A stretch of 64,000 nucleotides of DNA from Pseudonocardia sp. DSM 110487 (GTDB lineage: Bacteria; Actinomycetota; Actinomycetes; Mycobacteriales; Pseudonocardiaceae). Where the stretch lies: contig NZ_CP080521.1 in the NCBI RefSeq assembly GCF_019468565.1, positions 9,651,214-9,715,213 on the forward strand, in the 5' to 3' direction. The translations under genes were made by a program, and so were the position numbers. Below, piece after piece: positions 20,776 to 43,292 of this stretch (positions are counted from its first letter, which is position 1; each line of letters starts with the position of its first letter). The notes beneath the pieces are model-generated. The model did no database searches and had not been told where the DNA came from. It saw nothing but the letters and a program-made list of their open reading frames with translations.

Positions 20776-20910
20776 GTGAGTCCTCTGGGTTCATCAGCGG
20801 CGAAGCCGCTCGGGGTAGCACGCCACCGGCACCGCTGCGGGTTCTCAGACGTCCTCTCGCGAGGACGGTTCCGCTACCCGCACCGCCACGCAAAGCAACC
20901 ACAACAGGTG

Positions 20911-21849: not shown

Positions 21850-21860
21850 CTTCTCGCTCC

Positions 21861-22607
21861 TCAGCTGGGGTGCGGCTCGATCCAGTCGTAGCCTGCGGTG
21901 ACCAGCTCCTTGACGAGGCGCAGGTTGTACCGGTTCATCGCCCCGATCCGTTCGGCGAGCGCGGCCACCTTCTCGTCGAACTCGTCGGTCGGGAACACGT
22001 CGTTGACCAGGCCGATCTGCAGGGCCCGCTGCGCGTCGAGGGTGACGCCGGTGAAGAGCATCTCCTTGGCCCGTGCCATGCCGACACGGGCGGGCAGCCG
22101 CTTGAGCCCGCCCCAGCCGGGCGCGCTTCCGCCCACCTCGGGCTGGTCGGGGTCTTCCTTGCCATCCATGAACTTCGGCTGGTGCGGCGGCCGGGCGGAG
22201 AGGGTGATCTCCACCAGCCCCATCTTCGCGTTGTCAGCGCAGACGATGAAGTCCGCGGCGAGCGCCAGCTCGAGCCCGCCGCCGACGGCGTAGCCGCGCA
22301 CCGCGGCGAACACCGGGATGGAGAGCCGCTCCATCATCGCGAACGTCTTCTCGCCGAGGCGGCCCTGCTCGATCCGGTCGGCCTTGGTGAGCGACTCCGA
22401 CCAGTCGAGGTCCATGCCGGCGCAGAACCCCTTCTCGCCTGCGCCCTGCAGCACCGCGACGCAGACCTCGGGGTCGTCGTCGATGTCGGTGAAGACCTTG
22501 CGCAGGCCGTGCATCATCTCCGGGGTCAGGGAGTTGAGCTTCTTCGGCCGGTCGAGCGTGATCCAGCAGACGCGGTCCTTGACGACGACGTCCAGTCCTT
22601 CGGTCAT
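21861..22607 (-). CDS. enoyl-CoA hydratase/isomerase (crotonase) family protein
   Basis: AGEKGFCAGMDL oxyanion-hole region. ATG at 22607 preceded by AGGAGG. The ORF-track N-terminal extension is an artefact. Confidence 0.85.
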   Translation of the reverse strand: MTEGLDVVVKDRVCWITLDRPKKLNSLTPEMMHGLRKVFTDIDDDPEVCVAVLQGAGEKGFCAGMDLDWSESLTKADRIEQGRLGEKTFAMMERLSIPVFAAVRGYAVGGGLELALAADFIVCADNAKMGLVEITLSARPPHQPKFMDGKEDPDQPEVGGSAPGWGGLKRLPARVGMARAKEMLFTGVTLDAQRALQIGLVNDVFPTDEFDEKVAALAERIGAMNRYNLRLVKELVTAGYDWIEPHPS

Positions 22608-22617
22608 GTGTTTCCTC

Positions 22618-23844: not shown

Positions 23845-25481
23845 GCCGTCCTTCCCGGCGTCGCCTCCGCAGCGGCGGATGCCTGGCTCACCCGCGTGCT
23901 CGGCGCGGCGCGCTCGCGGTCCCACGTACCCGGCGTGATGCCCTGGTCACCCATCGCCCGCAGTGTGTGCTTGGCGACCTTGTCGGTGGGGGTGCGGGGC
24001 AGCTCGCCGACGAACTCGATGTAGCGCGGCACCATGAACGACGGCAGCTTGGCGGCGCAGTACGCGACGAGCTCGGCGGCCGACAGGTCGGCGCCGGGGG
24101 TCCGCACGACCGCCAGCTTCACGTCCTCCTCGCCCAGCTCGGACGGCACGCCGAAGGCCGCGGACTCGACGACATCCGGGTGCAGGTTCACCTCGCACTC
24201 GATGTCGAACGCCGAGATGTTCTCCCCGCGCCTGCGGATGGCGTCGGCGATCCGGTCGAGGAAGTAGAAGTAGCCGTCGTCGTCGCGCCATGCGCGGTCG
24301 CCGGTGTGGAACCACATGTTCCGGAACGCCTTCGCGGTGGCCGCCGGCATGCCGTAGTAGCCGGTGGTGATCACGAACGGCTGCTTGGGCCGCACCACGA
24401 GCTCGCCCGGCTCGCCGGCAGGGACCTCGCGGTCGTCCTCGTCGACGACGGCCACCTCGAACCGCTCGGAGTGGGCCTGCCCCATCGATCCGAGGCGCCA
24501 CTGCCCGTACGCGCTGCCGGTCGCGATGCCGACCTCGGTGCTGGTGTAGGTCTCCGCCGACCGGACGCCGAAGCGTTCCAGCAGGGGCGCGTCCAGCGCG
24601 GACTTGCCCATGTAGAACGTCTCGAGCGGGTGGTCGTGGTCCCGTGGTCCCGGCGGCGCGCTCAGCAGGATCGGGATCATCGCGAACACGCTCATGGTGA
24701 CCTGCGCGTCGAAGTACCGCACGTCGTCCCAGAACCGCGATGCGCTGAAGCGCTCGACGATGCCGATCGGGCTCCCGGACAGCAACGAGGAGAACACCCC
24801 GTCCCACAGCCCTGCCGCGTGGAAGAGCGGCAGCGGGCAGTACGTGGTCTTTCCCCACCGGTCGAGGAAGTCCAGCGAGTCGTACGCACAGGCGAGGGCC
24901 AGCGCGTGCGGCACCATCGCTCCTTTGGAGCGCCCCGTGGTGCCGGACGTGTACATGATCGCCTGCAGGTCGGAGAACCGCGCACCGCTCGGGACCGGCT
25001 CGGCCCCGTGCGCCAGCAGGCGTGACATCGGGATCGCGCCGTCGGCGAGCACCGCGAGCGACGGCTCCTGCCCGCGGACGATCACGCGGATCGGATCCGG
25101 CACAGCAGGAAGCACCGCCGGTAGGCGGTCGGCGTACTCGGCGTCGATCAGCAGCGTGGAGACGTCCGCGCTGTCCAGCACGTGCCGGAGCAGCTCCCCG
25201 CGGTACGCCGTGTTCACCGGCACCGCGACCGCGCCGATGCGCGCGAGCGCGACGATCACCGGCACGAACTCGGGGCAGTTCGGCAGCATCACCGCCACGT
25301 GGTCGCCGCGGCCAACACCCTCGGCGGCGAACCCGTTGGCGTACCTGTCGGCGGCGACGTCCACGTCGACGAAGGACAGCTCGCCGTCGCGGAACTTCAG
25401 GAACGCCGCCTTCCCGTGGGTCTCGGCGCGCGACCTGAGCACGTCACCGAGTACGAGACCCTCGAGCCACTCCTGGTTCAA
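23841..25481 (-). CDS. AMP-dependent synthetase/ligase (acyl-CoA synthetase)
   Basis: AMP-binding motifs (YTSGTTGRSKGAM, …TGD…, PRTPTDKVAK). TTG start at 25481 with GGGAGG 7 nt upstream. The ORF-track call to 26027 is an in-frame read-through artefact overlapping ectC. Confidence 0.8.
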   Translation of the reverse strand: MNQEWLEGLVLGDVLRSRAETHGKAAFLKFRDGELSFVDVDVAADRYANGFAAEGVGRGDHVAVMLPNCPEFVPVIVALARIGAVAVPVNTAYRGELLRHVLDSADVSTLLIDAEYADRLPAVLPAVPDPIRVIVRGQEPSLAVLADGAIPMSRLLAHGAEPVPSGARFSDLQAIMYTSGTTGRSKGAMVPHALALACAYDSLDFLDRWGKTTYCPLPLFHAAGLWDGVFSSLLSGSPIGIVERFSASRFWDDVRYFDAQVTMSVFAMIPILLSAPPGPRDHDHPLETFYMGKSALDAPLLERFGVRSAETYTSTEVGIATGSAYGQWRLGSMGQAHSERFEVAVVDEDDREVPAGEPGELVVRPKQPFVITTGYYGMPAATAKAFRNMWFHTGDRAWRDDDGYFYFLDRIADAIRRRGENISAFDIECEVNLHPDVVESAAFGVPSELGEEDVKLAVVRTPGADLSAAELVAYCAAKLPSFMVPRYIEFVGELPRTPTDKVAKHTLRAMGDQGITPGTWDRERAAPSTRVSQASAAAEATPGRTA

Positions 25482-25561
25482 TTGACACCTCCCTCGACCG
25501 GGCGAAACGGCTGCCGCCCTGCTCGGCGGCAGCCGTTTCGCGACCGGGGCGCCGACCTCCC

Positions 25562-25987
25562 TCAGGAGGCCTCCGCCGTCGTGCCCAATCCGTCGGGCGC
25601 TGGCTCGACGATCAGCGGGTACACGCCGTTCTCGTCGTGCACCTCGCGCCCGGTCACGGGCGGGTTGAACACGCACACCGTGCGCATCCGCGTGCGCGGG
25701 CGCAGCTGGTGGTGCTCGTGGCCGTTCAGGACGTAGACGGAGCCAGGGCCGAGCTGGTAGGTGACGCCGTTGTCCTTGTCGGTGAGCTCGCCTTCGCCCT
25801 CGATGACCCAGACGGCCTCGATGTGGTTGGCGTACCAGAAGTCGTTGATCGAACCGGCGTCGAGCACGGTCTCGTGCAACGAGAACCCGACGCCGTCGCC
25901 GGCGAGCACGATGCGCTTGCTGCGCCAGTGCTCGGTCTTGACGTCGCGCTCGGTGTCGGTGATCTCCTCGAGCGTGCGGACGATCAC
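25562..25987 (-). CDS. ectC: L-ectoine synthase EctC
   Basis: [40 protein letters not shown]…[11 protein letters not shown]…[24 protein letters not shown] is near-identical in pattern to EctC. GTG start overlaps the ectB stop (GTGA). Confidence 0.9.
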
Positions 25988-27252
25988 GCGGACATCCCTT
26001 CGGTGACGGCTCGGACGGATTCGGCAACCAGCCCCAGCCCCTCCTCCAGCTCCGCGTCGGTGATCGTGAGCGGCGGCATGAGCTTCATGACCTCGTCGGT
26101 GGGGCCGGCAGTCTCGATGATCAGGCCCCGCTCGAACGCCGCGGCGCACGCCTTCGCGGCGAGCTCGGGCTGGGAGAAGGACAGTCCGCGGGCCAGGCCG
26201 CGGCCCTTCGGGGTGAGCTCCACGCTCTCCGAGTCCGCCGCCACCTCCGCGAGGGCGGCGCCAACGCGCTCCCCCTTGGCGATGGTGGAGCGTTCGAGGG
26301 TGTCGTCGCTCCAGTATTCGCGCAGGGCGGCGGTGGCGGTGACGAACGCCGGGTTGTGCCCGCGGAACGTGCCGTTGTGCTCGCCGGGTCCCCACTGGTC
26401 GAGCTCGGGTTTGATGAGCGTGAGGGCCATGGGCAGGCCGTAGCCGCTGATCGACTTGGACAGGCAGACGATGTCGGGCCGGATGCCGGCCGCCTCGAAC
26501 GAGAAGAAGGGCCCGGTGCGCCCGACGCCCATCTGCACGTCGTCGACGATCAAGATCATGCCGTGGCGCCGGCACAGGTCTTCCAGCCCCTGCAGCCACT
26601 CGACGCGGGCCGGGTTGATGCCGCCCTCGCCCTGCACGGTCTCCACGATGACGCCTGCGGGCTCGTTCAGGCCGCTGCCCGCGTCGCCGAGCAGCTTCTC
26701 GAACCAGAGGAAATCCGGCACCGTGCCGTCGAAGTAGTTGTCGAACGGCATCGGGGTGGCGTGCACGAGCGGCACGCCCGCCCCACCGCGTTTCATCGAG
26801 TTCCCGGTGACGGACAGGGCGCCCAGCGTCATGCCGTGGAACCCGTTCGTAAAGTTGATCATCGACTCCCGGCCGGTGATCTTGCGCGCGAGCTTCAGCG
26901 CCGACTCGACGGTGTTGGCTCCGGTCGGCCCCGGGAACTGGACCTTGTAGTCGAGCCCGCGCGGTTTCAGCACGAGTTCCTCGAACGTCCGCAGGAACTC
27001 ACCCTTGGCCACGGTGTACATGTCGAGGCCGTGGGTGATGCCGTCGCGCGCGAGGTACTCCATGAGCGGCGCTTTCAGCGCCGGCGGATTGTGCCCGTAG
27101 TTCAGTGCGCCGGCACCGGCGAAGAAATCGAGATAGCTGTGGCCGTCGATATCTGTAATTCGAGATCCGCGGGCGGTGTCGAACACCACCGGCCAACTCC
27201 GGCAGTAACTGCGGACCTCGGACTCCAGGTCGTCGAAAACGGTCGTTTCCAC
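25984..27252 (-). CDS. ectB: diaminobutyrate--2-oxoglutarate transaminase EctB
   Basis: [17 protein letters not shown]-terminus and class-III aminotransferase body are characteristic of EctB. GTG start at 27252 preceded by GGGAGAGG. Confidence 0.9.
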
Positions 27253-27289
27253 GGGCCTCTCCCTGTGAAACGTCGTGATGATCGTCAGG

Positions 27290-27814
27290 TCAGCGGCGGA
27301 CCGGTCCGATCCGGAACAAGATCTCTGGTGGGTGTCCGTCGCCGAGCAGCTCTGCATCGAACAGCTCGCTGTGACGCACAGAAGCGTCCCGCCGCTCAGC
27401 GAATCGACTGAAGAGCGCGACGGACCCCGTGTTGTCGGGCGTGACGGTGGCCTCGAGGTGATCTACTCCAGGTACGCGGTCGAACAGGGCGTCGAGCATC
27501 GCCGCCGCCACGCCTTGCCCGCGCGCCGCGGCATCCACGCCGACCTGCCATACGACCAGGGTGGACGGCTCCTCGGGTCGACGGAACCCGGTGACGAACC
27601 CGACCACCTGCCCGTCGTGGCGCGCCACCACCGAGGTGGCGGCGAAATCACGGCACCACAACAGGTAGGCGTATCGGGAGTTCACATCGAGAACCCCGGT
27701 GGCCTCGGCCAGGCGCCAGCACGCGACACCGTCCGAGACCTCGGGGCGACCGATCGTCAGCCGTTCCCCGATGTTTGAGCGTGCACGGTCGGGGGATTCA
27801 ACGGGTGCGGCCAT
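27290..27814 (-). CDS. ectA: L-2,4-diaminobutyrate acetyltransferase EctA
   Basis: GNAT fold (…[10 protein letters not shown]…) in ectA position and size (174 aa). ATG at 27814 chosen; weak RBS. Confidence 0.8.
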
Positions 27815-28045
27815 GTCCCAAGAACTTAACAGGCGAGAAACCGGCCCGCCGATCACGGGGTGGCCCGGATCGGTCAAGATTGTGAGCGCTATCACAAAAG
27901 CGTTTGGCGATCACAGATGATGGGAACCGCGTCGTTCCGCCAGGTCACCGGGGGGATTTCGGCGGCTCTACGCGGCGTCGATGCACACTGTTTCAGGCGC
28001 AGATCACGAAATCGCAACGACCATCACATCCGCTAGGCTCGCCCC

Positions 28046-28831
28046 GTGCAGCCCGCCAGCGCGTCCCGTTCGGTCGTCGTCACCGGAGGGGGCCGCGGCG
28101 TTGGCAGGGCGGTCGTCGAGCGTCTTCTGCGCGACGGAGCGCACGTGGTCGCGATCGAGCTCGACGAAGGCGCGCTCGACTGGCTCGCCGGCCACCCCCG
28201 CGCGCTCGGTGTGGCGGGCAGCGCCGCCGACGAGGCCGTCACCGAGGCAGCAGCCGACCGTGCCGAAGAGGCCGCGCCGCTCACCGGCTGGGTCAACAAC
28301 GCCGCGGTCTTCCGCGACGCGTCGGTGCACACCGCTCCGGCGGACGAGATCCTCGACCTGGTCCGGACCAACCTCGCCCCAGCCCTCGTCGGCTGTACCA
28401 CCGCGGTGCGCCGGTTCCTCGCGACCGGCACCGGCGGCGCGATCGTCAACGTCTCCTCCCACCAGGCCCAGCGAGCGGTGCCCGGCTGCACGCCCTACGT
28501 CACGGCGAAGGCAGCGATCGAGGGCCTCACGCGCGCGCTCGCCGTCGAGTACGGGCCGCGCGCCGTGCGGGTGAACGCCGTGGCGCTGGGCTCGATCGCC
28601 ACCGAGCGCTACGCCGCGTACCTCGACGAGCTCGGCCCCGATGGCGCGGCGCAGGTCGAGGAGGAGATGCGGCGGATCCACCCGCTCGGCCGGGTGGGCG
28701 CAGCCGCCGAGGTGGCGTCCGTGATCGCGCACCTGCTCTCGGACGACGCGGCATACGTCACGGGCGCCACGGTGCCGGTGGACGGCGGCCGCTCGGTGCT
28801 CGCGCGCGACCCCGAGGCGCACGACACCTGA
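28046..28831 (+). CDS. SDR family oxidoreductase
   Basis: VVVTGGGRGVGRAV…NNAA…SS…YVTAKAA motifs. Confidence 0.85.
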   Translation: MQPASASRSVVVTGGGRGVGRAVVERLLRDGAHVVAIELDEGALDWLAGHPRALGVAGSAADEAVTEAAADRAEEAAPLTGWVNNAAVFRDASVHTAPADEILDLVRTNLAPALVGCTTAVRRFLATGTGGAIVNVSSHQAQRAVPGCTPYVTAKAAIEGLTRALAVEYGPRAVRVNAVALGSIATERYAAYLDELGPDGAAQVEEEMRRIHPLGRVGAAAEVASVIAHLLSDDAAYVTGATVPVDGGRSVLARDPEAHDT

Positions 28832-28903
28832 GCCGTTCGGCCGCTCGACAGCGCCCGGCACCGGTGGTGGACTGGCCCGCCCATCGGCGCGAGGAGGTTC
28901 GCC

Positions 28904-29236
28904 ATGGCCAAGTTCGCGGTGTTCTTCAGCTACAAGCCGGAGACGTGGAACCGGATGCTGATGAAGCCCGGCGACCGGCCGGCCGCGGTGCGGGATCTGG
29001 CGGCGTCCGTCGGCGGTTCCCTCGAGACGGTGTACTACATGTTCGGTGATCGCGACGGCTTCGTCGTCCTCGACATCCCGGACACCACCACCGCCGCGGC
29101 CGTCTCCATCGCGGTGAGCAGCACCGGGGCGTTCTCGCACCTCGAGACGCGCCAGCTCATCGCCGCGGAGGACCTGCCTGCGGTGCTGGAGAAGGCCGCG
29201 GGCGCGCGGGAGTCGTACCGACCGCCGGGCGAGTGA
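28904..29236 (+). CDS. GYD-domain protein
   Basis: 110 aa (MAKFAVFFSYKPETW…YYMFGDRDGFVVLDIPD) typical of the GYD family. RBS GAGGAGG. Confidence 0.75.
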   Translation: MAKFAVFFSYKPETWNRMLMKPGDRPAAVRDLAASVGGSLETVYYMFGDRDGFVVLDIPDTTTAAAVSIAVSSTGAFSHLETRQLIAAEDLPAVLEKAAGARESYRPPGE

Positions 29237-30146
29237 CTCGCAGCGCGTTCAGCGTCACCATCTGGTGCGCCACGTCGCCCCAGTCCACGGCCTCGACCAG
29301 CCCCGGCGAGCCGGGCGGTCGCCACCACGGCCGCACCGCGCGCCAGCGGCCGTCCGGGCGTTGCTTGCCGCCCACCAGGTGCCGAGCCCTGCTCGTGCGC
29401 GGATCGTCCCGGAATCCCGCCCGGTCGAGGACGACGAGAGCCTGCAGCACGTCGTAGTGCCAGTAGGGCGGGTAGTGCAGGTCGACGACCGACCGGTGCA
29501 GCGGCCGGTCCGTGCCGGCCGCGAACACGACATCGCGCGCGAGCAGCACTTCCGCCGCCGCCGCGGCGGCCGCCCGGCTGCGTGCGTCGCCCGTGGCCGT
29601 CGCGTGCTCGTGCAGCCCCCACAGCGCGGGCAGCGTTTCGTGCACCGACGAGCGGCGCGCCCCGCGGTGCCGGTCGCAGTTCCACCCGCCGTCCGGCCAC
29701 TGCCCGGCGACGAGCTGCTCGACGAGCCGGGCCACCCGCTCGTCGCCCGCCATGCCGAGCCTGCAGGCGACCGCCACCGCGTTCCCCTCCTGCGAGGCGT
29801 GCATCCGGCGGCGGCCGTCCACCACCGGGACCCCGGCGAGCCGGTCGGGCGCGGCCCAGTGGTCGAGCACGGCCCCCGCCGCCCGCACGGCGGGGCCGTG
29901 ATCGGGCGGGATGCCGAGCTCGACGAGTGACACGAGCCGCCAGTGCGCCCCGGTCCACTTGGCGTAGGGACGCCCCAGCACGGCCCGGTCCTCCAGCTCG
30001 GCGAGCAGTCCGCGCACGAGCGGGCTGCGCAGCGCGTTGGCGACCAGGGCCGGCTCGCCAAGGAGGTCGCGGCGAGCCAGCGCGCGGATCGCGGGGTCGC
30101 CCTCCGCAGCCAGCCGCAGGGCGACCGGGTGCGGCGCGGGGGGCAC
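29157..30146 (-). CDS. prenyltransferase/squalene-oxidase-repeat (alpha/alpha-toroid) protein
   Basis: Two QW-type motifs (QWPDGGW, QRPDGRW). GTG start at 30146 chosen (no in-frame ATG nearby). The 3' end overlaps the GYD gene by about 80 nt, convergently. Confidence 0.45.
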   Translation of the reverse strand: MPPAPHPVALRLAAEGDPAIRALARRDLLGEPALVANALRSPLVRGLLAELEDRAVLGRPYAKWTGAHWRLVSLVELGIPPDHGPAVRAAGAVLDHWAAPDRLAGVPVVDGRRRMHASQEGNAVAVACRLGMAGDERVARLVEQLVAGQWPDGGWNCDRHRGARRSSVHETLPALWGLHEHATATGDARSRAAAAAAAEVLLARDVVFAAGTDRPLHRSVVDLHYPPYWHYDVLQALVVLDRAGFRDDPRTSRARHLVGGKQRPDGRWRAVRPWWRPPGSPGLVEAVDWGDVAHQMVTLNALRVTRPAVGTTPARPRPSPAPQAGPPRR

Positions 30147-30351
30147 GTGCCCATCACAGCATCTCCGGCGTGCGCGGAACCACCAGCCGAGCGACCCCAA
30201 CCATCCTGCGTCCCCCGCGGTCTACTCCGTGGAACTACCGATGTGGAGGCAACGGATGAGCCACGATGATCGCAACGGAATCCGCGACGTCCATCGGCTC
30301 GGCTAGCGTTGCGCCGCGTACGGGTGACCTTTGGGGGGAGGTGGCCGCCGT

Positions 30352-30996
30352 ATGCTCGAGTTCCTCACCGCCGCGGTGAGCTTTCCCGCGGTGCTGTTCG
30401 GCTTCATGCTTGTCGTCGTCGTGCTGTACTGGCTGCTCGTGCTGGTCGGAGCCGATCTGGATCTGCTGGACGCGGATGCGGACGCGGGCGGCGGGATGAT
30501 CAACACGCTGGGCCTCGGTGGCGTTCCGCTCATGGTCGCGCTCTCGATGTGGATCACCCTGTCGTGGCTGCTGGCCATGATCGGCACCATCGTGCTCGGC
30601 GCGATCGCGGTGCCGGGCGCCCTGGGCGTCCTCCTCGGCATCGCGGTGCTGCTCGTCGCGTTGCTGGGCGGCCTGCTCGTCACGCGGCTCGTCGTCGTCC
30701 CGATCCGCCGTGCGATACCCGGCGCCGCTGAACCCAGCCGCAGCGACTTCGTCGGCCGCACCTGCGTGATCAGGACCGGCACCGTCAGCGAGACGTTCGG
30801 CCAGGCCGAGATCACGTCGGACGACGGCTCGTCGGCGATCATCCAGGTCCGCAGGCCCGCCGCCATGGCTGGCAACGGTCCGCTGCGCGCCGGGTCGGAA
30901 GCGCTGATCTTCGAATACGACCCCGCCGAAGAGATCTTCTGGGTGGACCGCGCGCCGTCCAGCCAGCCACCAAACCCTCTGACCAAGGAAAATTGA
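30352..30996 (+). CDS. NfeD-family membrane protein (flotillin partner, short form with C-terminal OB-fold)
   Basis: N-terminal TM helices plus a C-terminal beta-rich soluble domain. ATG at 30352 with GGGGGGAGG upstream. Its stop overlaps the flotillin start (TGATG). Confidence 0.75.
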   Translation: MLEFLTAAVSFPAVLFGFMLVVVVLYWLLVLVGADLDLLDADADAGGGMINTLGLGGVPLMVALSMWITLSWLLAMIGTIVLGAIAVPGALGVLLGIAVLLVALLGGLLVTRLVVVPIRRAIPGAAEPSRSDFVGRTCVIRTGTVSETFGQAEITSDDGSSAIIQVRRPAAMAGNGPLRAGSEALIFEYDPAEEIFWVDRAPSSQPPNPLTKEN

Positions 30997-33005
30997 TGGG
31001 CTCAATCGCCTTGTCCACCGGGATCGCCCTCGGCGTCGTCCTGCTGATCGCAATCGTCGTGCTGATCGCGGTCAGCCGAATGTTCAAGAAGGTAGACCAG
31101 GGCCGCGCGCTGATCGTCTCCAAGATGCGCAAGGTCGATGTCACGTTCACCAGCGCCGTCGTGCTGCCGGTGGTGCACAAGGCCGAGTTCATGGACATCT
31201 CGGTCAAGACGATCGAGATCGAGCGCACCGGTCATGACGGCCTGATCTGCCGCGACAACATCCGCGCTGACATCCGGATCACCTTCTTCGTGCGCGTGAA
31301 CAAGACCGTCGAGGACGTCATCAAGGTTGCGCAGGCGATCGGCACTGAGCGGGCCAGCGACCAGGCGACGATGCAGGCCCTGTTCGCCGCCAAGTTCTCC
31401 GAGGGTTTGAAGACGGTCGGCAAGCACCTCGACTTCGTCGACCTATACACGAAGCGCGACGAGTTCCGGGACCGGATCATCCAGGTCATCGGCACCGACC
31501 TGAACGGCTACAGCCTGGAAGACGCCGCGATCGACTACCTCGAGCAGACCCCGATGGAAGCGCTCGACACGAACAACATCCTCGACGCGCAGGGCATCCG
31601 GAAGATCACCGAGCTGACCGCGGTCGAGCACATCCGAACGAACGAGTACAAGCGCAACGAGGAGAAGGAGATCACCCGGCAGAACGTCGAGGCCCGGGAG
31701 GCGATCCTGGAGCTCGAGCGTCAGCAGGCCGACGCCGAGTCGAAGCAGCACCGCGAGATCGCGACGATGCGGGCGCGCGAGGAGGCCGAGACGCAGCGGG
31801 TGCAGGCCGAGGAACGCCTCAAGGCGCAGTCGGCGCACCTGCGCACCGATGAGTCGCTCGGCGTGCAGCAGCAGAACCAGGAGCGGGAGATCGCGGTCGC
31901 GCAGAAGAACCGGGAACGCGTGATCGCGATCGAGAGCGAGCGGATCGAGAAGGACCGGCTGCTCGAGGTGGTCGGCCGCGACCGCGAGGTGGAGCTCGCG
32001 CAGATCGCCAAGGTCAAGGAGGTCGAGGTCGGGCGCCGGGCCGTCGCGGAGGTGGTGCGCGAACGCGTCGCGGTCGACAAGACCGTCGCCGAGCAGGAGG
32101 AGAGCATCAACCGGCTGCGAGCGGTCGAGGAGGCCGAACGCGAGCGCCAGGCGACGGTCATCCGGGCGGAGGCCGAGGCGCAGCAGAACCTGGTCAAGGA
32201 CATCAAGGCGGCCGAGGCGGCCGAGGCGGCGGCCAAGCACAGGGCGAGGGAGCAGCTCACGCTGGCCGAGGCCGAGCAGCAGGCGGCCGACCTGCAGGCG
32301 AGGGCCAAGATCCGGCTCGCGGAAGGCACCCAGGCCGAGGCGGCCGCGGCCGGGTTGGCCGAGGTCCAGGTCAACGAGCGGGGCGCGGAGGCCATCGAAA
32401 AGGTCGGGCGCGCCGAGGCGCTGGTCGAGCGCGAGAAGGCCACGGTGGCGGCGGACGCGCTGAAGTTCAAGCTGCAGGCCGAGGCGGAAGGCCTGACGGA
32501 CAAGGCCGCAGCGATGGCGGCGCTGGACGAGGCGTCACGCGATCACGAGGAGTTCCGGCTCCGGTTGGAGTCCGACAAGGAGATCGCGCTGGCCAAGGTC
32601 GACGTGCACCGGCAGATCGCCGAGGCGCAGGCGGCCGTCCTGTCGAAGGGACTGGAGAGCGCCGACATCGACATCGTCGGCGGCGACAGCATCTTCCTCG
32701 ACAAGCTGATGTCATCGATCGCGCTCGGCAAGGGCATCGACGCGGTGGTGGACAGCTCCGAGGTCACCCAGGCCCTCGCGGGCAGGTGGCTGAACGGCGA
32801 CGGGAACGTCATCGAGGACGTCAGCAGGCTGCTGACCGCGGCCGGCAGCGAGGACGTGAAGAACCTGACCCTGTCTGCGTTCCTGCTCAAGATGATCAAC
32901 CAGGGTGGCCCCGACTCGGCGAAGGCCCAGCAACTGCACGCCCTCGCACACCAGCTCGGCCTCGCCGACGCGCCCGTCGCGAGCCTGCCGACGTCGGTGA
33001 AATGA
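30996..33005 (+). CDS. flotillin-family SPFH/band-7 protein (FloT/YqiK-like, 669 aa)
   Basis: N-terminal TM helix plus SPFH domain, then a very long Glu/Ala-rich coiled coil (EAEAQ… repeats). RBS AAGGAA. Confidence 0.9.
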   Translation: MGSIALSTGIALGVVLLIAIVVLIAVSRMFKKVDQGRALIVSKMRKVDVTFTSAVVLPVVHKAEFMDISVKTIEIERTGHDGLICRDNIRADIRITFFVRVNKTVEDVIKVAQAIGTERASDQATMQALFAAKFSEGLKTVGKHLDFVDLYTKRDEFRDRIIQVIGTDLNGYSLEDAAIDYLEQTPMEALDTNNILDAQGIRKITELTAVEHIRTNEYKRNEEKEITRQNVEAREAILELERQQADAESKQHREIATMRAREEAETQRVQAEERLKAQSAHLRTDESLGVQQQNQEREIAVAQKNRERVIAIESERIEKDRLLEVVGRDREVELAQIAKVKEVEVGRRAVAEVVRERVAVDKTVAEQEESINRLRAVEEAERERQATVIRAEAEAQQNLVKDIKAAEAAEAAAKHRAREQLTLAEAEQQAADLQARAKIRLAEGTQAEAAAAGLAEVQVNERGAEAIEKVGRAEALVEREKATVAADALKFKLQAEAEGLTDKAAAMAALDEASRDHEEFRLRLESDKEIALAKVDVHRQIAEAQAAVLSKGLESADIDIVGGDSIFLDKLMSSIALGKGIDAVVDSSEVTQALAGRWLNGDGNVIEDVSRLLTAAGSEDVKNLTLSAFLLKMINQGGPDSAKAQQLHALAHQLGLADAPVASLPTSVK

Positions 33006-36000
33006 CCGTCGACGTCGCCGAGCAGGACGCGGCCGAGGCGGGCGGGCAGACCGGACTCGACGGGGGCACTTACGAGCTGCTGCGCGCCCGGCTGGCCGAG
33101 CACGCCGCGGAGCTGGCCCGCCGGGCCGGCGCGCTGAACGAACGTCGCATCGAGGCGTTCGGCGCCGCGGCGCTCGAGCTGCTCGGCACCGAACGCATCC
33201 GGACCGAGAACAACTGCGTGCCGCGCGACATCGTGTCCGTTGGCGGGCACATGTTGTTCGGCTACAACGTCTTCATCGGGCTCAAGCCGGAGACGGTCGT
33301 CGACGACGTGTTCTCGCTCCACACGTTCTCCCGGGACGGTTCGGCGTTCCGCTTCGACGGCGCCGCGGACGCACTGCCGGAGCTGCTTCGCGACCCGCGG
33401 TTCCAGCGCGACTTCACCGAGCTGTACCGGTACTACAGGGACACGCGCCTGCTGCAGCTGCGCCGGGTCGAGGGCAAGTTGCTCGCGGTGTTCCAGACCG
33501 GCGGGCGTACCGACGACATCAAGGTGCTGCGCTGGAAGGTCGCCACCGACGGCGCCGTGTCCTACGTCGACAACCGCGGTGAACGGGACCACGTGTTCCC
33601 GCCTTCGCACGACTTCACCTGGACCGAGGCCACCCGAGACGACCAGGTGCTCGGCAGGCACCCGCACCTGTCGATCCTGGGCCAGGTGTTCGTCGAGACG
33701 CTCGGCGGCACGCTGACGATCAAGATCGAGAACAACACCGAGAGCGGGGAGGGGATCTACTCAGAGCCGGTCGACGAGCCGCTGCAGAGCCTTGCCGACG
33801 CCGACGTGGCGTACGCCCAGGTGGGGCCGATGATCCTGCTGCGCATCCGGCCGTACAACGAGCAGCGGTACCGGTACCTGGTGTTCAACACCCGCACCAA
33901 GCAGGTCGTCCGCGCCGACGCCATCGGACAGGCGTGCCAGCGCCTCCCCGAGGACCAGGGACTGATCTTCCCCGGTGGGTACTACCTGGCCACGGGCGTC
34001 AGCAAGACGTTCGACACCGCGGTCGACGACCTCGAGTTCGAGCGCGTGATCCGCTCGCCAAACGGGGAGGACGTGCTGTACGTCTTCCACGCCCGCGCCG
34101 ACGGCTTCTCGCTGCTGCTGCCGTACAACGTGATCCGCAAGGAGGTCTCCACCCCGCTTCCGTGCCACGGCTACTCGCTGTTCGACGACGGCACGATGGT
34201 GGTGTTCCGTGCCGTGTCGGACGAGCCGACGCGGGTCCACGCGATGCAGGTGTGGCAGACGCCGTACCAGTCCGACGTGTACGCCGCCGCGCAGCCTGCC
34301 GGGTCGGGCCCGTTCGCGCGGATCGGCAACGCCGACCTGGTGCGCGGCATCTCGGACTCCCTGTCGGTGTCGGGCATGATCGACGAGATGGCCCCGGCGA
34401 CGGCGGTGTTCGAGGCGCTGATCGCCACCTGCCAGCGGGTCTTCGACGCCTACCACTGGCTCGGCGAGCAGGACCTCGGCGACCTGCGGACGCCCCTCGC
34501 CAACCTGCAGAACACCGCAGAGCAGGTCCTGGACGAGTTCGAGAAGGTCACCGAGCTCACCGCGCAGGCCACGGCGGCGGTGGACGAGTCGGCCGAGCGG
34601 ATCGGCACCCTCGTCCGGTCGAGCCGTGGCCTCACGCCGCGCAGCGCCGACGGCTGGGTGACGCTGCTGGCCGACCTGCGCAAGGCGCAAGGGCACCTGG
34701 TCACCGTTCGCGAGATGCGCTACGCCGATCAGGCACGCATCGACGCCCTCGACGCCGAGCTCGATCAGGCTCTCGACGATGCCGGGAAGCGCGCCGTCCA
34801 GTTCCTCAGCGGCGAGAACGCGTTCGACACCTACCGCGCCGATGTCGACAAGCTGATCGCGGCCGCCGGCGAGATCGCGACCGTCGCGGAGGCCGAACCG
34901 ATCCGCGAGCGGCTGGCCGCCCAGACCGACGGCCTGCAGATCGTCACCGACATCGTCGGCTCGCTCGGCATCGCCGATGCCACCGTCCGGACGGCGATCC
35001 TCGAGCGGATCGGTGAGGTGCTCGGCGGCGTCAACCGGGCCCGCGCCACCGTCGAAGGCAGGCGCAGCGAGCTGCTCGCCCGTGAGGGACGGGCCGAGTT
35101 CGCCGCCGAGTTCGCGCTGCTCGGGCAGGCCATCACCGGTGCGATCGCCGCGGCGGACACCCCCGACGCGTGCGATGAGCAGCTCGGGCGACTGTTGCTG
35201 CAGGTGGAGAACCTGGAGTCGCGGTTCGGCGAGTTCAACGACTTCCTCACCGAGCTGGGCGCCAAGCGGGAGGACGTCTACGAGGCGTTCTCGTCCCGCA
35301 AGCAGGCGCTGCTGGACGAGCGCGCCCGGCGTGCGGACCGGCTCGTGGAGTCGGCCGACCGGATCCTGTCCAGCGTCCGGCGCCGGGTGGCCACCCTGGG
35401 CTCCCTCGACGAGGTCAACACCTACTTCGCATCGGACCCGATGGTCGGCAAAATGCGCAGCGTTGCCGAGGAGCTGCGCGGCATCGGCGACCAGGTCCGC
35501 GCGGAGGAGCTGCAGGGCCGGATCAAGGCGGCCCGCCAGGAGGCGGCACGCGCCCTGCGCGACCGGCTGGACCTCTACGGCGACGACGGCGAGACGATCC
35601 GCCTCGGCAAGCACACGTTCGCGGTGAACACCCAGGCCATCGACCTCACCCTTGTGCCGCACGACGGCGCGATGGCGTTCACCGTCACCGGCACGGACTT
35701 CCGCGCTCCGGTCCGGGACGAGGCGTTCACCCGGACCCGGCCGTACTGGGACCAGTTGCTGGTGTCCGAGACGGCGGAGGTCTACCGCGGGGAGTTCCTG
35801 GCAACCTCGATACTGGCGGCGGCCGAGGGCAACGGTGGGCTGGACGCGCTGCACGAGGCCGCCGTGACCGACGGCGGGCTGCTTGCCGTCGTCCGGCGGG
35901 CAGCCGAGACCCGCTACGACGAGGGCTACGAGCGCGGGGTGCACGACCACGACGCGGCGGCGATCCTCGACGCGCTCCTGCGGCTGCACGCCGGCGCTGG

Positions 36001-37978
36001 ACTGCTGCGGTACCCGCCCGCCGAGCGCGCTGCTGCGCAGCTGTTCTGGGCGTTCGGCGCCGCCGACCCCGCGCGGAAGCACTGGACCATCCGGGCGAGC
36101 TCCCTCGCAAGGGCACGGGCCGCGTTCGGCGGGTCGGCCGCGATCGACACGATGCGTTCTGAGCTCGCCGAGGCCGTGCGCGGCTTCATCGCGCCGCTGG
36201 CGAGCGCGGATCCCCCGGCACCGTCAGTTCGCTCCGACGAGCTCCGCTCAGTCGCGGGCGAGTACCTGTTCGAGGAGCTGGCCACCGGGAACCCGCAGTT
36301 CGTCACCGCGGCGGGAGCCCGCACGCTGCTGGAACGCTTCCACCGCGCGCTCGGTGGCGTCGACGCCGAGTCCCGGCGGCGCTACGACGAGGACGTCCGT
36401 GCGCTGGCCGGGGACCTGCCCGCGCAGTACCAGCTCGTCCACGCCTGGCTGTCGGCTTTCGTCGCCACCGCCGACGACGAGCTGGGCCCCGACCTGCCCG
36501 AGGCCGTCGCGCTCGAGCTGTGCGGCAGCGGCCTCGCGCGTCAGGACTCGTCGGCGGCCGTGTTCGCCGCCGTCGACGATCTGCTCGGCACCCATCCGCG
36601 CATCCGGCATCGGCGGCTCGAGTTCCGGTTGGACGAACTGCTGATCCGATGCAGGCTGTACCGCGACGAGCGGGTTCCCGGCTTCCGGTCCTACCAGCGG
36701 CAGCGACACGCCCTCGTCGAAGCGGAGCGGGCCCGGCTGCGCCTGTCGGAGTACCAACCGAAGGTGATGAGCGGGTTCGTCCGCAACCACCTGCTCGACG
36801 AGGTCTACCTGCCGTTGATCGGCGACAACCTGGCCCGGCAGCTCGGTGCCGCAGGCGACGCGAAGCGCACCGACCACTCGGGCCTGCTGCTGCTCATCTC
36901 ACCCCCCGGCTACGGCAAGACGACGCTCATGGAGTACGTCGCGAACCGGCTCGGGCTGGTGTTCGTCAAGGTCAACGGTCCCGCGCTGGGACACGTGGTC
37001 ACCTCGGTCGACCCGGGTGAGGCCCCGAACGCCACGGCGCGCCAGGAGGTCGAGAAGATCAACTTTGCGCTGGAGATGGGCAGCAACGTGCTGCTCTACC
37101 TCGACGACATCCAGCACACGTCCCCCGAGCTGCTGCAGAAGTTCATCTCGCTGTGCGACGCGCAGCGCCGGATGGAGGGGGTCTGGGGCGGCAGCACCCG
37201 CACGTACGACCTGCGCGGCAAGCGGTTCGCGGTGTGCATGGCCGGCAACCCGTACACCGAGGAGGGCAAGCGGTTCCGGGTGCCGGACATGCTCGCGAAC
37301 CGCGCCGACGTGTGGAACCTCGGTGACGTCCTCTCCGGAAGGGACGAACTGTTCGCGCTGAGCTACATCGAGAACGCGCTGACGTCCAACCCGGTGCTGA
37401 CCCCGCTGTCCACGAGGGACAGGTCGGACGTCCGGCTGCTGGTCCGGCTCGCCCGCGGCGACGACGGCGTCCGGCCCGACCAGCTCACCCACTCCTACTC
37501 GGCGGCCGAGCTCGACGAGGTGCTGTCCGTACTGCGCAAGGTGCTGCGCGTGCAGCAGGTGGTGCTGACGAACAACAAGGCCTACATCGCGTCGGCGGCC
37601 ACGGCGGACGCGAGCCGGACCGAGCCGCCGTTCCTGCTGCAGGGGTCCTACCGGAACATGAACAAGCTGACGGAGCGGATCGTGCCAGTGATGAACGACG
37701 CCGAGCTCGAGGCGCTGATCGACGATCACTACGTCGGCGAGGCGCAGACGTTGACGTCCGGGGCCGAGGCGAACCTGCTCAAGCTCGCCGAGCTGCGCGG
37801 ACGGCTGACCGCGGAGCAGGCGGAACGGTGGGCCGACGTGAAGCGGGCGTACCTGAGGGAGCAGGCACTCGGCGGCGCCGACGACGACCCGATGGCGCGA
37901 GCGGTCGGCGCGGTCGGCCTGCTCGCAGACCGGGTGGGCGAGATCCGAACGGCGATCGAGCGGAACGGCGAGCCCTGA
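33002..37978 (+). CDS. giant (1,658 aa) uncharacterised protein with C-terminal AAA+ (AAA_5/dynein/MoxR-like) ATPase domain, translationally coupled to flotillin
   Basis: ATG overlaps the flotillin stop (ATGA at 33002-33005). Near the C-terminus: Walker A LLLISPPGYGKTTL, Walker B VLLYLDDIQ, sensor-1 AGNP and downstream Arg residues. The N-terminal ~1,200 aa are largely alpha-helical/coiled-coil with no motif I recognise. Uniform codon bias over 5 kb. Confidence 0.8.
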   Translation: MTVDVAEQDAAEAGGQTGLDGGTYELLRARLAEHAAELARRAGALNERRIEAFGAAALELLGTERIRTENNCVPRDIVSVGGHMLFGYNVFIGLKPETVVDDVFSLHTFSRDGSAFRFDGAADALPELLRDPRFQRDFTELYRYYRDTRLLQLRRVEGKLLAVFQTGGRTDDIKVLRWKVATDGAVSYVDNRGERDHVFPPSHDFTWTEATRDDQVLGRHPHLSILGQVFVETLGGTLTIKIENNTESGEGIYSEPVDEPLQSLADADVAYAQVGPMILLRIRPYNEQRYRYLVFNTRTKQVVRADAIGQACQRLPEDQGLIFPGGYYLATGVSKTFDTAVDDLEFERVIRSPNGEDVLYVFHARADGFSLLLPYNVIRKEVSTPLPCHGYSLFDDGTMVVFRAVSDEPTRVHAMQVWQTPYQSDVYAAAQPAGSGPFARIGNADLVRGISDSLSVSGMIDEMAPATAVFEALIATCQRVFDAYHWLGEQDLGDLRTPLANLQNTAEQVLDEFEKVTELTAQATAAVDESAERIGTLVRSSRGLTPRSADGWVTLLADLRKAQGHLVTVREMRYADQARIDALDAELDQALDDAGKRAVQFLSGENAFDTYRADVDKLIAAAGEIATVAEAEPIRERLAAQTDGLQIVTDIVGSLGIADATVRTAILERIGEVLGGVNRARATVEGRRSELLAREGRAEFAAEFALLGQAITGAIAAADTPDACDEQLGRLLLQVENLESRFGEFNDFLTELGAKREDVYEAFSSRKQALLDERARRADRLVESADRILSSVRRRVATLGSLDEVNTYFASDPMVGKMRSVAEELRGIGDQVRAEELQGRIKAARQEAARALRDRLDLYGDDGETIRLGKHTFAVNTQAIDLTLVPHDGAMAFTVTGTDFRAPVRDEAFTRTRPYWDQLLVSETAEVYRGEFLATSILAAAEGNGGLDALHEAAVTDGGLLAVVRRAAETRYDEGYERGVHDHDAAAILDALLRLHAGAGLLRYPPAERAAAQLFWAFGAADPARKHWTIRASSLARARAAFGGSAAIDTMRSELAEAVRGFIAPLASADPPAPSVRSDELRSVAGEYLFEELATGNPQFVTAAGARTLLERFHRALGGVDAESRRRYDEDVRALAGDLPAQYQLVHAWLSAFVATADDELGPDLPEAVALELCGSGLARQDSSAAVFAAVDDLLGTHPRIRHRRLEFRLDELLIRCRLYRDERVPGFRSYQRQRHALVEAERARLRLSEYQPKVMSGFVRNHLLDEVYLPLIGDNLARQLGAAGDAKRTDHSGLLLLISPPGYGKTTLMEYVANRLGLVFVKVNGPALGHVVTSVDPGEAPNATARQEVEKINFALEMGSNVLLYLDDIQHTSPELLQKFISLCDAQRRMEGVWGGSTRTYDLRGKRFAVCMAGNPYTEEGKRFRVPDMLANRADVWNLGDVLSGRDELFALSYIENALTSNPVLTPLSTRDRSDVRLLVRLARGDDGVRPDQLTHSYSAAELDEVLSVLRKVLRVQQVVLTNNKAYIASAATADASRTEPPFLLQGSYRNMNKLTERIVPVMNDAELEALIDDHYVGEAQTLTSGAEANLLKLAELRGRLTAEQAERWADVKRAYLREQALGGADDDPMARAVGAVGLLADRVGEIRTAIERNGEP

Positions 37979-39807: not shown

Positions 39808-40929
39808 ATGACCACAACCGAGACGGAGATCCGCCCGTTCACCCTCGACGTCCCCCAGGCCCAGCTGGACGACCTGCACGCCCGGCTGGCGAACACCCGC
39901 TGGCCGGACGAGCTGCCCGGCGTGGGGTGGAGCCGCGGCGTCCCGGTGGGGTACCTGAAGGAGCTGGCCGAGTACTGGCGCACCGGCTTCGACTGGCGGG
40001 CCCATGAAGCGGCGATCAACCGGTACCCGCAGCAGGTCGCGACGATCGACGGGCAGAACGTCCACTTCCTGCACGTCCGCTCGCCCCAGCCGGACGCCAC
40101 CCCGCTGCTCCTGCTGCACGGCTGGCCCGGCTGCTTCGCCGACTTCCTCGACGTGATCGACCCCCTGTCCGAGACCTTCCACCTCGTCGTCCCGTCGCTG
40201 CCCGGGTTCGGGTTCTCGACACCGCTCGCGGGCCCCGGCATGAACGCGGCCCGGATGGGCGGTGTGCTGGCCGAACTGATGACCCACCTCGGATACGAGC
40301 GGTTCGGGATCCAGGGGTACGACACGGGCGGCTGGGTGGGGCCCGCGATCGGCCGGCGGGTCCCGGACCGGGTGATCGGCATGCACCTGAACGCGCTGCT
40401 CACGTTCCCGGCCTGGGAGGACGGTGAGTTCGACGGGCTGACCGAGGTCGAGCAGCGCCGCTGGCAGGCGATGCAGAACTTCAACGACGGCTACCTGCAG
40501 TGCAACTCGAAGCGCCCGCAGACCGTCGCCTACGGGCTGCACGACTCGCCGGTCGGCCAGCTCGCGTGGATCGTGGAGAAGTTCAAGGAGCTGACCGCCC
40601 CGGAAGGAGGCCTGCCAGAGGACAGCATTGCCCGCGACCGCATCCTCACCGACATCTCGATCTACTGGTTCTCCGGCACCGCGGGGTCGGCCGCCCAGAT
40701 CTACTACGAGGAGATCAGCGCGGGCGGCGACTGGGCTTCCCGCGGGACCGTGCCGACCGCCGTGCTCGTCTCCTCCCGCGACGTGACGATCCGCCGCTGG
40801 GCCGAGCGCGACCACGACGTCGTGCGCTGGACCGAGCTGGACCGCGGCGGGCACTTCCTCGCGATGGAGCAGCCGGAGCTGCTGGTCGCCGACGTCCGCG
40901 AGTTCTTCCGGGCCATGGGATGCGCCTGA
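39808..40929 (+). CDS. epoxide hydrolase (alpha/beta-hydrolase with EH N-terminal domain)
   Basis: EH N-terminal domain signature ([28 protein letters not shown]…) and HGWPG oxyanion motif. Confidence 0.85.
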
Positions 40930-41990
40930 CCGCACGAACCATCGGCCGCGCGACGCTCGCCCGCCAGCTGTTGCTGGACCGGGTCGACCTCCCGGTCGTC
41001 GTGGCCACGAAGCGGCTGTTCGGCCTGAACGCGCAGGACCCGAACCTGCCGTACCTGGCGCTGTGGAGCCGCCTCCACCCGTTCGCGATCGACGATCTCA
41101 CCGCGGCCATCGAGGACGGCTCCCTGGTGCGGTCGACGCTCATGCGCGCCACCCAGCACGTGGTGTCGGCGGCCGACTTCCGGCTGGTCCGCCCGCTGCT
41201 CGCCCCGCTGCTGCGGCGCGTGCAGCGCAACACCTTCGGCCGGCGCACCGCTGGCGTCGACCTCGACGCGCTCGTCGCGGAGGCCTGCGGGCTGCTCGCG
41301 GACGGCCAGGTCCTGACTCGGCCCGAGCTCGGCAGGCGGCTCGCCCAGCGGTGGCCGCATGCCGATCCGACCGCGCTCGGCTGGAGCGTGCAGTACCTGC
41401 TGCCGCTCGTGCACCCGGCGCCGAGCGGCACCTGGAACGTGCGGGGCGCCACGCCGTTCGCCCTCGCCGACGTACCTGCGGACGAGTGCGTTGAGGAGCT
41501 GGTGTGGCGCTACCTGGCGGCATTCGGCCCGGCCTCGGTGTCGGATGCAAGGGCCTGGTCCGGGATCGGCGGGCTGCGCGAGGTGTTCGACCGGATGCGC
41601 CCCCGGCTGCGGACCTTCACCGACGAGTCCGGGCGGGAGCTGTTCGACCTGCCGGACGCGCCGCTCCCCTCGGCGGACCTGCCCGCCCCGGTTCGGTTGC
41701 TGCCGGAGTTCGACGCACCGCTGCTGGCCTTCGCCGACCGGACCCGGATCATGACCGACGAGGTCAGGCGGCAGGTCTGCGTCGGCTCCGGCGTCGCAGC
41801 CACGGTCCTCGTCGACGGCACCGTCGCGGCCACCTGGTCGATCGGCCGCGCGGCCGGCACTGCCGTGCTCACCGTGCAACCGCTGCGCCCGATCGCCCCG
41901 GCCGACCGCGCCGCCGTCGAGGCCGAGGCGGAGCGGCTACTCGCCTTCACCGACCCGGACTCACGCCCTGACGTGCGCATCCGCCGGTGA
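40920..41990 (+). CDS. winged-helix DNA-binding-domain protein (YcaQ/AlkZ-like putative DNA glycosylase)
   Basis: The start overlaps the EH gene by 10 nt. Sequence pattern is consistent with DUF1006/AlkZ-family proteins (…[12 protein letters not shown]…). Confidence 0.65.
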
Positions 41991-42110
41991 GCCCGCCCAG
42001 TCGCCCTGGCATGGCGTGGATCAGGCGGCGAGTGTCCTTCCGCCATCTTCACGCGGCCCCGACTTCCTGGGAGGGTCGACCGGCGACCACTCATGAGCCC
42101 GGGGGGATGC

Positions 42111-43292
42111 ATGGTGAGCACGACGAGGAGCCCGAGCGAGCAGATCCTCGCGGAGGCCGATCGGCTCGCGAAGACGTTCGCCGAACGCGCTGCCGAGCAC
42201 GACCGGGACGCCACGTTCCCGCACGACAACTACGCCGACCTCGCCGAGGCGGGCATCCTGCGGATGTCGGTTCCCGAGGAGCTGGGCGGGTTCGGCGGCG
42301 GGTTGCCCGAGGTCGTCGCGGTCCTGGAGCGCATCGCGGCCGGCGACGGCTCGACGGCGCTGTCGCTTGCCATGCACATCTCACCGCTCGGCCAGTGGGC
42401 GAGCGTGTGGCGGCGCACCGGGAACGAGCGGCTCGCCGACCTGCTCCAGCGGGCCGCGGAGGGCACCCTCGTGTGGGCGGCGCTCACCGCGGAGCGCGGG
42501 ATGGCCAACCGCATGACCGATGCCAACACGATCGCCCGGCGCACCGACGGCGGCTACCTGCTGACCGGGCGGAAGATCTTCGCCACGAACTCCGCGATCG
42601 CCACCGACTTCTCCACCACCGCGCGCGACCCAGACGCAGAGGGCGGCCCACGGCTGCTGCTGTGCGCGGTGTCCATGGACTCCCCCGGCATCCGCGTGCA
42701 CCCGACGTGGGACACCCTCGGCATGCGCTCCACCCGCAGCGACGACCTGGAACTCGACAACGTGTTCGTCCCGGAGTCGGCGGTGGTCCACTCGCTGCCG
42801 ATCGGCCACCTCGACCGCCGGGTCATGGAGACGGTGTGGGCGTGGGCGATGCCGGCGTTCGCCGGCGTCTACACCGGCGTCGCCTGCGGGGCACTGCGGT
42901 GGACCGTCGACCGGCTGACGTCAGCGGGCCGGACCACTGACCCTGTCGTCCAGGACGCCGTCGGCCACTGCCACATGCTGCTGGAGTCGTCGCGGGCGCT
43001 GATCCACCGGCACGTCGAGGAGGTCGTCTCGCGCGCGCTGCACGCCCTCGACGTGCAGGAGGCGATGGCGCGCTGCATCACGGTCAAGCACGTGGCGGCG
43101 CACAACGCCACCGAGATCCTGCAGCGGCTGGCCGAGGTGAACGGCGGCGCCGCGTTCGGCCGGGCCCTGCCCTTCGAGCGGATGTGGCGCGACGTCCAGG
43201 CCGGGCCGATCATGCCGATGGGCAGCATCGCGGCCCGCAAGTTCGTCGGGGCCACGGCGCTGGGCGTCGAGGTCGCGCCGGTGGCTCCCTAG
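42111..43292 (+). CDS. acyl-CoA dehydrogenase family protein
   Basis: ACAD domains. ATG at 42111 preceded by GGGGGG. Confidence 0.8.
   Translation: MVSTTRSPSEQILAEADRLAKTFAERAAEHDRDATFPHDNYADLAEAGILRMSVPEELGGFGGGLPEVVAVLERIAAGDGSTALSLAMHISPLGQWASVWRRTGNERLADLLQRAAEGTLVWAALTAERGMANRMTDANTIARRTDGGYLLTGRKIFATNSAIATDFSTTARDPDAEGGPRLLLCAVSMDSPGIRVHPTWDTLGMRSTRSDDLELDNVFVPESAVVHSLPIGHLDRRVMETVWAWAMPAFAGVYTGVACGALRWTVDRLTSAGRTTDPVVQDAVGHCHMLLESSRALIHRHVEEVVSRALHALDVQEAMARCITVKHVAAHNATEILQRLAEVNGGAAFGRALPFERMWRDVQAGPIMPMGSIAARKFVGATALGVEVAPVAP

Follow-up and report, generated by a model that had tools for sequence, protein, structure and literature searches.

Three overlapping genes on the forward strand

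The window analyzed here, a stretch of 64,000 nucleotides (nt) from Pseudonocardia sp. DSM 110487 (contig NZ_CP080521.1), carries on its + strand three consecutive open reading frames (ORFs), namely, gene A at 30352-30996 (214 amino acids [aa]), gene B at 30996-33005 (669 aa), and gene C at 33002-37978 (1,658 aa), which we identify by comparison with known families as a YqiJ/DUF1449-type membrane protein, a YqiK-type flotillin, and a giant soluble ATPase of the DUF3686/DUF7902/AAA type. The DNA is actinomycete, with a G+C content of 72.6%, and the nearest relatives are other Pseudonocardia, with proteins of P. zijingensis being 85-88% identical. A preliminary description had presented the three genes as a translationally coupled module of NfeD, flotillin, and an ATPase of no known family, and the ORFs and both of the stop/start overlaps it listed are present at the coordinates claimed. 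At the A/B junction (TGATG, 30994-30998), the last base of the A stop codon (TGA) doubles as the first base of the B start codon (ATG); at the B/C junction (ATGA, 33002-33005), the ATG start of C and the TGA stop of B overlap by 4 nt.

The two junctions differ in how far they are kept in relatives. An RTGA stop/start overlap is present between B and C in 53/77 actinomycete orthologous loci and in just 2/68 distant loci, in which the median gap is 84 nt; at the level of gene sequence, the 4-nt overlap is an actinomycete trait, and B and C are translationally coupled in actinomycetes. The frame of C is open upstream as far as a GTG at 32786, but because the overlap recurs in these loci, ATG 33002 is the likely start of C. 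The A-B junction is variable among actinomycete relatives (mostly -4 to +20 nt, range -4 to about +100 nt). The proposed coupled, co-inherited module is supported; of its two overlaps, that between B and C is kept in actinomycetes but not in the distant loci, and that between A and B is not conserved. In one actinomycete locus only, that of Streptomonospora sp. PA3 (L025, 4047-5993), there is about 1.1-1.3 kb of extra DNA between the A and B orthologues. A scan for promoters and terminators was uninformative at this G+C content; the single terminator-like site fell within gene C and was inside the expectation from shuffled sequence.

Neither A nor B of the window matched any Pfam or NCBIfam model, even at E = 10 (for B, this includes Pfam Band_7), and since these libraries were silent, both proteins were identified through profile-profile alignment to YqiJ and YqiK of E. 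coli. Hydropathy analysis of A gave hydrophobic segments at aa 14-32, 52-70, and 92-110, followed by a basic stretch, and the C terminus forms a beta-rich, OB-like domain of about 80 aa. A broad A profile that included metagenomic orthologues aligned with E. coli YqiJ at an hhalign probability of 89.9% (E 1.7e-6, 155 colinear columns); with a narrow profile, the probability was just 29%. Homologues of A are named "DUF1449 family" in UniRef and "OB-fold-containig protein" at NCBI, and two distant orthologues matched YqiJ_N below the cut-off. The preliminary description had named this gene NfeD. No Pfam or NCBIfam match to NfeD (PF01957) was found in 14 and 15 A orthologues at E ≤ 1 and E ≤ 0.1, and hidden Markov model (HMM) searches of the PDB with the A sequence and the A family profile returned nothing, including no NfeD chain. 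Hinderhofer et al. (2009, PMC2636767), however, place YqiJ and YuaF among distant NfeD homologues, with SPFH2 flotillins as their partners, and A has the three transmembrane segments of the YqiJ type and lies directly upstream of a flotillin gene. On these profile alignments, A is of the YqiJ/DUF1449 type and is NfeD-like at the superfamily level only, by way of YqiJ.

A profile of 18 B orthologues aligned with E. coli YqiK over aa 6-279 (hhalign 99.5%, E 4.5e-23), and the source databases name B orthologues as flotillin family, SPFH, or YqiK, with PF01145 annotated on many of them; PDB HMM searches with the B sequence and the B family profile returned nothing, including no SPFH chain. The protein begins with a single N-terminal transmembrane anchor (aa 8-26, 31017-31073; hydropathy maximum 3.06) followed by SRMFKK, and because basic residues follow the membrane segment, the bulk of B is predicted to be cytoplasmic under the positive-inside rule. 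The YqiK-aligned part runs through the SPFH/band-7 region into the coiled coil (aa 30-279, 31083-31832). The coiled coil itself is rich in Ala, Glu, and Arg (20%, 18%, and 11%) and spans aa 216-545 (31641-32630), and it is followed by a C-terminal domain (aa 546-669, 32631-33002) that has invariant columns and a DIDIVGGDS... motif and is kept as far as Vibrio, where the alignment reaches aa 631. With the SPFH region, the anchor, and the Ala/Glu-rich coiled coil all in place, B is by homology a flotillin, as had been proposed, and is of the YqiK type. It had also been called atypically long, which it is not among its peers: flotillins linked to ATPase C are 615-690 aa long.

Gene C encodes a protein with no hydrophobic segment. 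It had been considered unassignable, with a helical/coiled-coil N-terminal region of about 1,200 aa, and neither point survives. Pfam places C in a large family, with matches to PF12458 (DUF3686; E 1.3e-220), PF25472 (DUF7902; E 9e-29), and AAA (E 4e-6), the last with AAA/AAA_5/AAA_22 at aa ~1291-1421; clustering of homologues of the first 1,200 residues at 50% gave 1,412 representatives. Homologues share the architecture, are about 1,600-1,750 aa long, and carry the NCBI label "DNA repair ATPase." An AlphaFold2 (AF2) model was built as two pieces (mean predicted local distance difference test score [pLDDT], 69 and 81.5), and in it the first 420 residues are beta-rich. DUF3686 (aa 37-485, 33110-34456) corresponds to a helix at aa 23-53 and about 27 strands at aa 59-420, the latter being consistent in the model with a 6-7-bladed beta-propeller; Foldseek searches with the N-terminal part returned beta-propellers only, all weak matches, the clathrin terminal domain and IFT-A among them. 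A long helical stalk follows (aa 437-860, 34310-35581), with DUF7902 inside it (aa 606-690, 34817-35071), and then come two domains that belong to the better-scoring piece, a small beta one (aa ~865-905) and an all-helical one (aa ~930-1180; both within 35582-36541). Between Actinomycetota and Bacteroidota, C retains its length and its order of domains with almost no gaps, as expected for a rigid machine, and the AAA+ core is the most conserved part (67%).

The C-terminal module had been called a dynein/MoxR-type AAA+ ATPase, and its motifs were found where they had been placed. There is a single AAA+ core (aa 1286-1450, 36857-37351) with Walker A GYGKTT (36908-36925), Walker B LLYLDDIQ (37091-37114), and sensor-1 AGNP (37241-37252). 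A beta-hairpin (aa ~1390-1403) precedes the strand that bears sensor-1, and R1434 (37301-37303) is a candidate arginine finger. A lid and C-terminal helical domain complete the protein (aa 1451-1658, 37352-37975), with an invariant EPPFxLQGSYRNM. The catalytic motifs are invariant across phyla. Walker B has the form hhhhDD, not hhhhDE, and both acidic residues (D1368 and D1369, 37106-37111) are invariant from Actinomycetota to Bacteroidota. The core has the features of the MoxR/midasin/dynein type, matching AAA_5, and is nearest to the MoxR remodeling ATPases CbbQ and NorQ; PDB HMM searches with the C sequence and profile gave P-loop matches only.

The database label raises the possibility that C is a DNA repair ATPase whose position next to a flotillin is incidental to its function. 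Apart from the name given by NCBI and Pfam, this idea can draw on the Foldseek search with the AAA+ core, which ranked RuvB first (E ~1e-5). However, no support for a role of C in DNA repair was found in the literature, nor any DNA-related domain by Pfam or DNA-related context in the flanking genes; the explanation is not supported, we regard it as barely credible, and the name is probably wrong.

Linkage of the three genes across phyla

A genome scan recovered 80 actinomycete loci (62-85% identity), and in all 78 of those having upstream DNA the order is A-B-C; their 8-kb flanks hold no further conserved gene. Since nothing else in the flanks is kept, the association of the three genes goes beyond chance. 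A metagenome scan with a more diverse profile added 80 loci (42-74% identity). With four further, individually fetched loci taken into the counts, 61 loci have more than 2.5 kb upstream. By tblastn, a B orthologue lies directly upstream of C in 56 of these 61, and an A orthologue was found in 51 loci over all loci scanned. The gene-neighborhood check proposed in the preliminary description, thus, came out in favor of a link between C and flotillin in both samples. The C family extends to Vibrio, Niabella, and Aureibacter, and carriers of the whole triad include Streptomyces, Amycolatopsis, Proteus mirabilis, Niabella, a Deinococcus megaplasmid, P. fluorescens SBW25/pQBR103, and Vibrio alginolyticus, in which the identity of B was confirmed by hhalign (99.3%). 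Streptomyces, Amycolatopsis, V. alginolyticus, P. mirabilis, and SBW25/pQBR103 are experimentally tractable hosts. As judged from gene order, A, B, and C are co-inherited in at least four phyla.

Two variations on this arrangement were observed. In a few distant loci (L147, 7365-7910; L153, 7404-7949; L152, 5658-6188; L129, 4096-4644), a zinc-ribbon-like protein is encoded between B and C; it measures about 180 aa, has paired CxxC motifs, and may be an accessory subunit. Elsewhere, C stands with no flotillin beside it: in L122 it comes after genes for HipA, AIM24, and an M48 peptidase, and in L098 and L103 the genes on its flanks are for two-component systems and Ser/Thr kinases. An alternative partner of C in such loci was considered and rejected, as the neighbors are unrelated to one another.

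In distant loci, the triad has a recurrent upstream companion. PspA (PF04012, E 4e-49) precedes A-B-C in 18 of them and YjfI/DUF2170 in 16, with 16/18 PspA-bearing metagenome loci also having DUF2170/YjfI; the two are found upstream in about one third of the distant loci. Niabella has the full five-gene form, with the CesT/Tir-PspA pair upstream of the triad. On pQBR103 (L166, 1-12055), the triad comes directly after a cluster for PspA, a rhomboid protease, DUF2491, DUF350, DUF1190, and glutathionylspermidine synthase, so that two PspA-associated neighborhood types are joined on this 425-kb megaplasmid of P. fluorescens SBW25. The window and the 80 actinomycete loci contained neither PspA nor YjfI.

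This neighborhood has been described before. Ravi et al. (2024, mSystems, PMC11237479) reported that the CesT/Tir(YjfI)-PspA(YjfJ) operon also encodes YqiJ/YuaF, a band-7/flotillin protein, and an ATPase with a beta-propeller, a coiled coil, and an AAA+ module, that abbreviated operons without PspA are more widely distributed, and that the system may serve sub-membrane assembly and dynamics with a chaperone-like assembly role. Their account is one paragraph of context from comparative genomics, without experiments. The window agrees with it in the three proteins, their order, and their domain architectures; it differs in being the three-gene abbreviated form, without the CesT/Tir-PspA dyad, and the actinomycete version adds the conserved 4-nt B-C overlap. 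The module in the window is, on this comparison, an actinomycete, translationally coupled member of a neighborhood previously described in silico. The earlier statement that the system is uncharacterized consequently holds for experimental work, none of which was found, and not for the linkage itself.

The triad has an ordinary metabolic setting in the window. Acyl-CoA dehydrogenases, at least three of them, predominate at 19723-29236 and 39808-43292, where a class III aminotransferase, an SDR, a GYD-domain protein, and an epoxide hydrolase are also encoded, and the flanks further contain an MFS transporter and an HTH regulator. A possible fourth component, the divergent - strand ORF at 29157-30200 (347 aa, high third-position G+C), was dismissed, having no Pfam match and being absent from 80/80 related loci. 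TelA was likewise rejected as a conserved partner; it occurs at two loci only, directly downstream of C in metagenome locus L085 (13049-14269) and near the triad in V. alginolyticus (L082, 15177-16304), and these share no common cluster. The V. alginolyticus triad (L082, LJTH01000004.1, 1-20821) seemingly sits in a variable island, with IS605 OrfB, an RNA ligase, an HD/AAA_33 kinase-like protein, and an R2K ATP-grasp protein encoded upstream and HTH-HipA, TelA, NUDIX, a nicotinamidase-like protein, and NAPRTase encoded downstream.

Such surroundings bear on whether the triad is an anti-phage or conflict system, in which infection or envelope damage would be detected by the flotillin and the giant ATPase, which would then set off a protective or abortive response; a defense-like machine had been suggested in the preliminary description. 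The family is spread across phyla and resides on some megaplasmids (pQBR103 and Deinococcus plasmids), the Vibrio triad is beside IS605 OrfB, the RNA ligase, HipA, and TelA, and HipA is also near the L122 locus. However, PADLOC gave only P-loop noise (E ≥ 0.003), no copy was present in 50,697 phage records, and neither Pfam nor NCBIfam identified an effector domain (nuclease, protease, TIR, or pore-former) in A, B, or C. The flanks in the window are metabolic, those in relatives are not conserved, and the 62-88% identity across actinomycete orders roughly tracks taxonomy, unlike that of fast-turnover defense genes. The defense explanation is not supported, and we consider it very unlikely.

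A proposed membrane scaffold with a dedicated ATPase

We propose that A, B, and C form one membrane-associated machine. On the cytoplasmic face of the membrane, A, with its three transmembrane segments and OB-like domain, would build a flotillin/NfeD-like scaffold together with B. C would dock onto this scaffold, probably via its propeller and stalk, with its MoxR/dynein-like AAA+ module presumably working as a ring, and ATP hydrolysis by C would drive the flotillin oligomer to form, open, or come apart, or would pull out proteins held there, for the purpose of membrane maintenance or an envelope-stress response. We put the probability that A and B are a scaffold on which C acts in this general way, remodeling either the scaffold or its clients, at about one half.

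Several observations argue for this proposal. The A-B-C linkage is kept across phyla, and in actinomycetes the B-C overlap is kept with it. The predicted topology fits, as basic residues follow the one N-terminal membrane segment of B and C lacks hydrophobic segments. PspA and YjfI upstream in distant loci, PspA upstream in Niabella and in pQBR103, where a polyamine cluster accompanies it, and TelA near two loci point to a membrane-stress context. The AAA+ module of C is closest to the CbbQ/NorQ remodelers and has invariant catalytic motifs. Finally, Ravi et al. (PMC11237479) independently describe the neighborhood and propose sub-membrane dynamics for it.

Other observations weigh against the proposal. 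C is found without an adjacent flotillin in about 4/61 metagenome loci and in Aureibacter tunicatorum (L083), and it is therefore not strictly dependent on a neighboring B gene. Because Walker B is DD, hydrolysis may be slow, or C may act as a nucleotide-dependent switch instead of a motor. MoxR ATPases usually act with a vWA partner, and there is no vWA/MIDAS domain in C by Pfam and no conserved extra neighbor that could supply one. The propeller is modeled at moderate confidence, the piece having a mean pLDDT of 69 with residues 306-390 under 50. A literature search on DUF3686/PF12458, "DNA repair ATPase," and flotillin-NfeD-AAA+ combinations found no experimental study. Lastly, we infer the physical interaction between B and C, as we do ring formation, the substrate, and the trigger.

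Within this framework, a more specific version is that C is a dedicated SPFH/flotillin motor, a MoxR-like ring on propeller-stalk arms that would open or dismantle flotillin cages much as Vps4 does for ESCRT-III; we offer it tentatively, as a possibility that falls well short of likely. By analogy, the Vps4-ESCRT-III and PspA systems would share with the triad an ATPase that remodels a membrane-bound polymeric scaffold, and PspA is itself linked to the triad in other phyla. The weak Foldseek matches provide a secondary lead in the same model, as the propeller-plus-helical layout of C may be coat-protein-like.

Alternatively, the triad may serve membrane-protein quality control, with the flotillin cage corralling client proteins and C unfolding, extracting, or loading these clients and not acting on the scaffold. 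HflK/C-FtsH is an established precedent for SPFH proteins working with an AAA+ ATPase, CbbQ and NorQ, the closest relatives of the AAA+ module, remodel client enzymes, and the binding of clients or adaptors is typical of propellers; the chaperone-like assembly role proposed by Ravi et al. (PMC11237479) is in line with this as well. On the other hand, Pfam identifies neither a protease domain nor a vWA adaptor in C, and the neighborhoods of the actinomycete and metagenome loci contain no conserved client gene. The present data do not separate client handling from remodeling of the scaffold, and we consider quality control in this narrower sense rather unlikely.

Comparison with other systems places the proposed scaffold machine among partial precedents. 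E. coli yqiJK and B. subtilis yuaFG (NfeD2-FloT) also have the small membrane protein first, with A homologous to YqiJ and B to YqiK, but they lack the third gene; B exceeds E. coli YqiK (553 aa) by about 115 aa, and A and B fall below the Pfam thresholds, which is a difference from these pairs. With HflK/C-FtsH, there may be a mechanistic analogy, an SPFH scaffold being tied functionally to a membrane AAA+ ATPase. FtsH, however, is membrane anchored and belongs to the classic clade of AAA+ proteins with an M41 protease, whereas C is soluble, MoxR/dynein-like, and without a protease, and HflK/C faces the periplasm, whereas the A-B scaffold is proposed to be on the cytoplasmic face. C differs from MoxR proteins (CbbQ, NorQ, and RavA) and from midasin and dynein in having no vWA/MIDAS partner or domain and a DD Walker B, and, unlike in those proteins, propeller, stalk, and helical domains totaling about 1,285 residues stand in front of its AAA+ module.

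The name "DNA repair ATPase" has been propagated over thousands of genomes with no visible support and is probably misleading. Bacterial flotillins are widespread, and their function and regulation are still debated; to our knowledge, no factor powered by ATP has been described that acts on one. If C is a dedicated flotillin motor, it would be the first regulator of flotillin assembly known to run on energy. The giant ATPase, with its gene linked to that of a flotillin in at least four phyla, provides a direct experimental handle on the scaffold.

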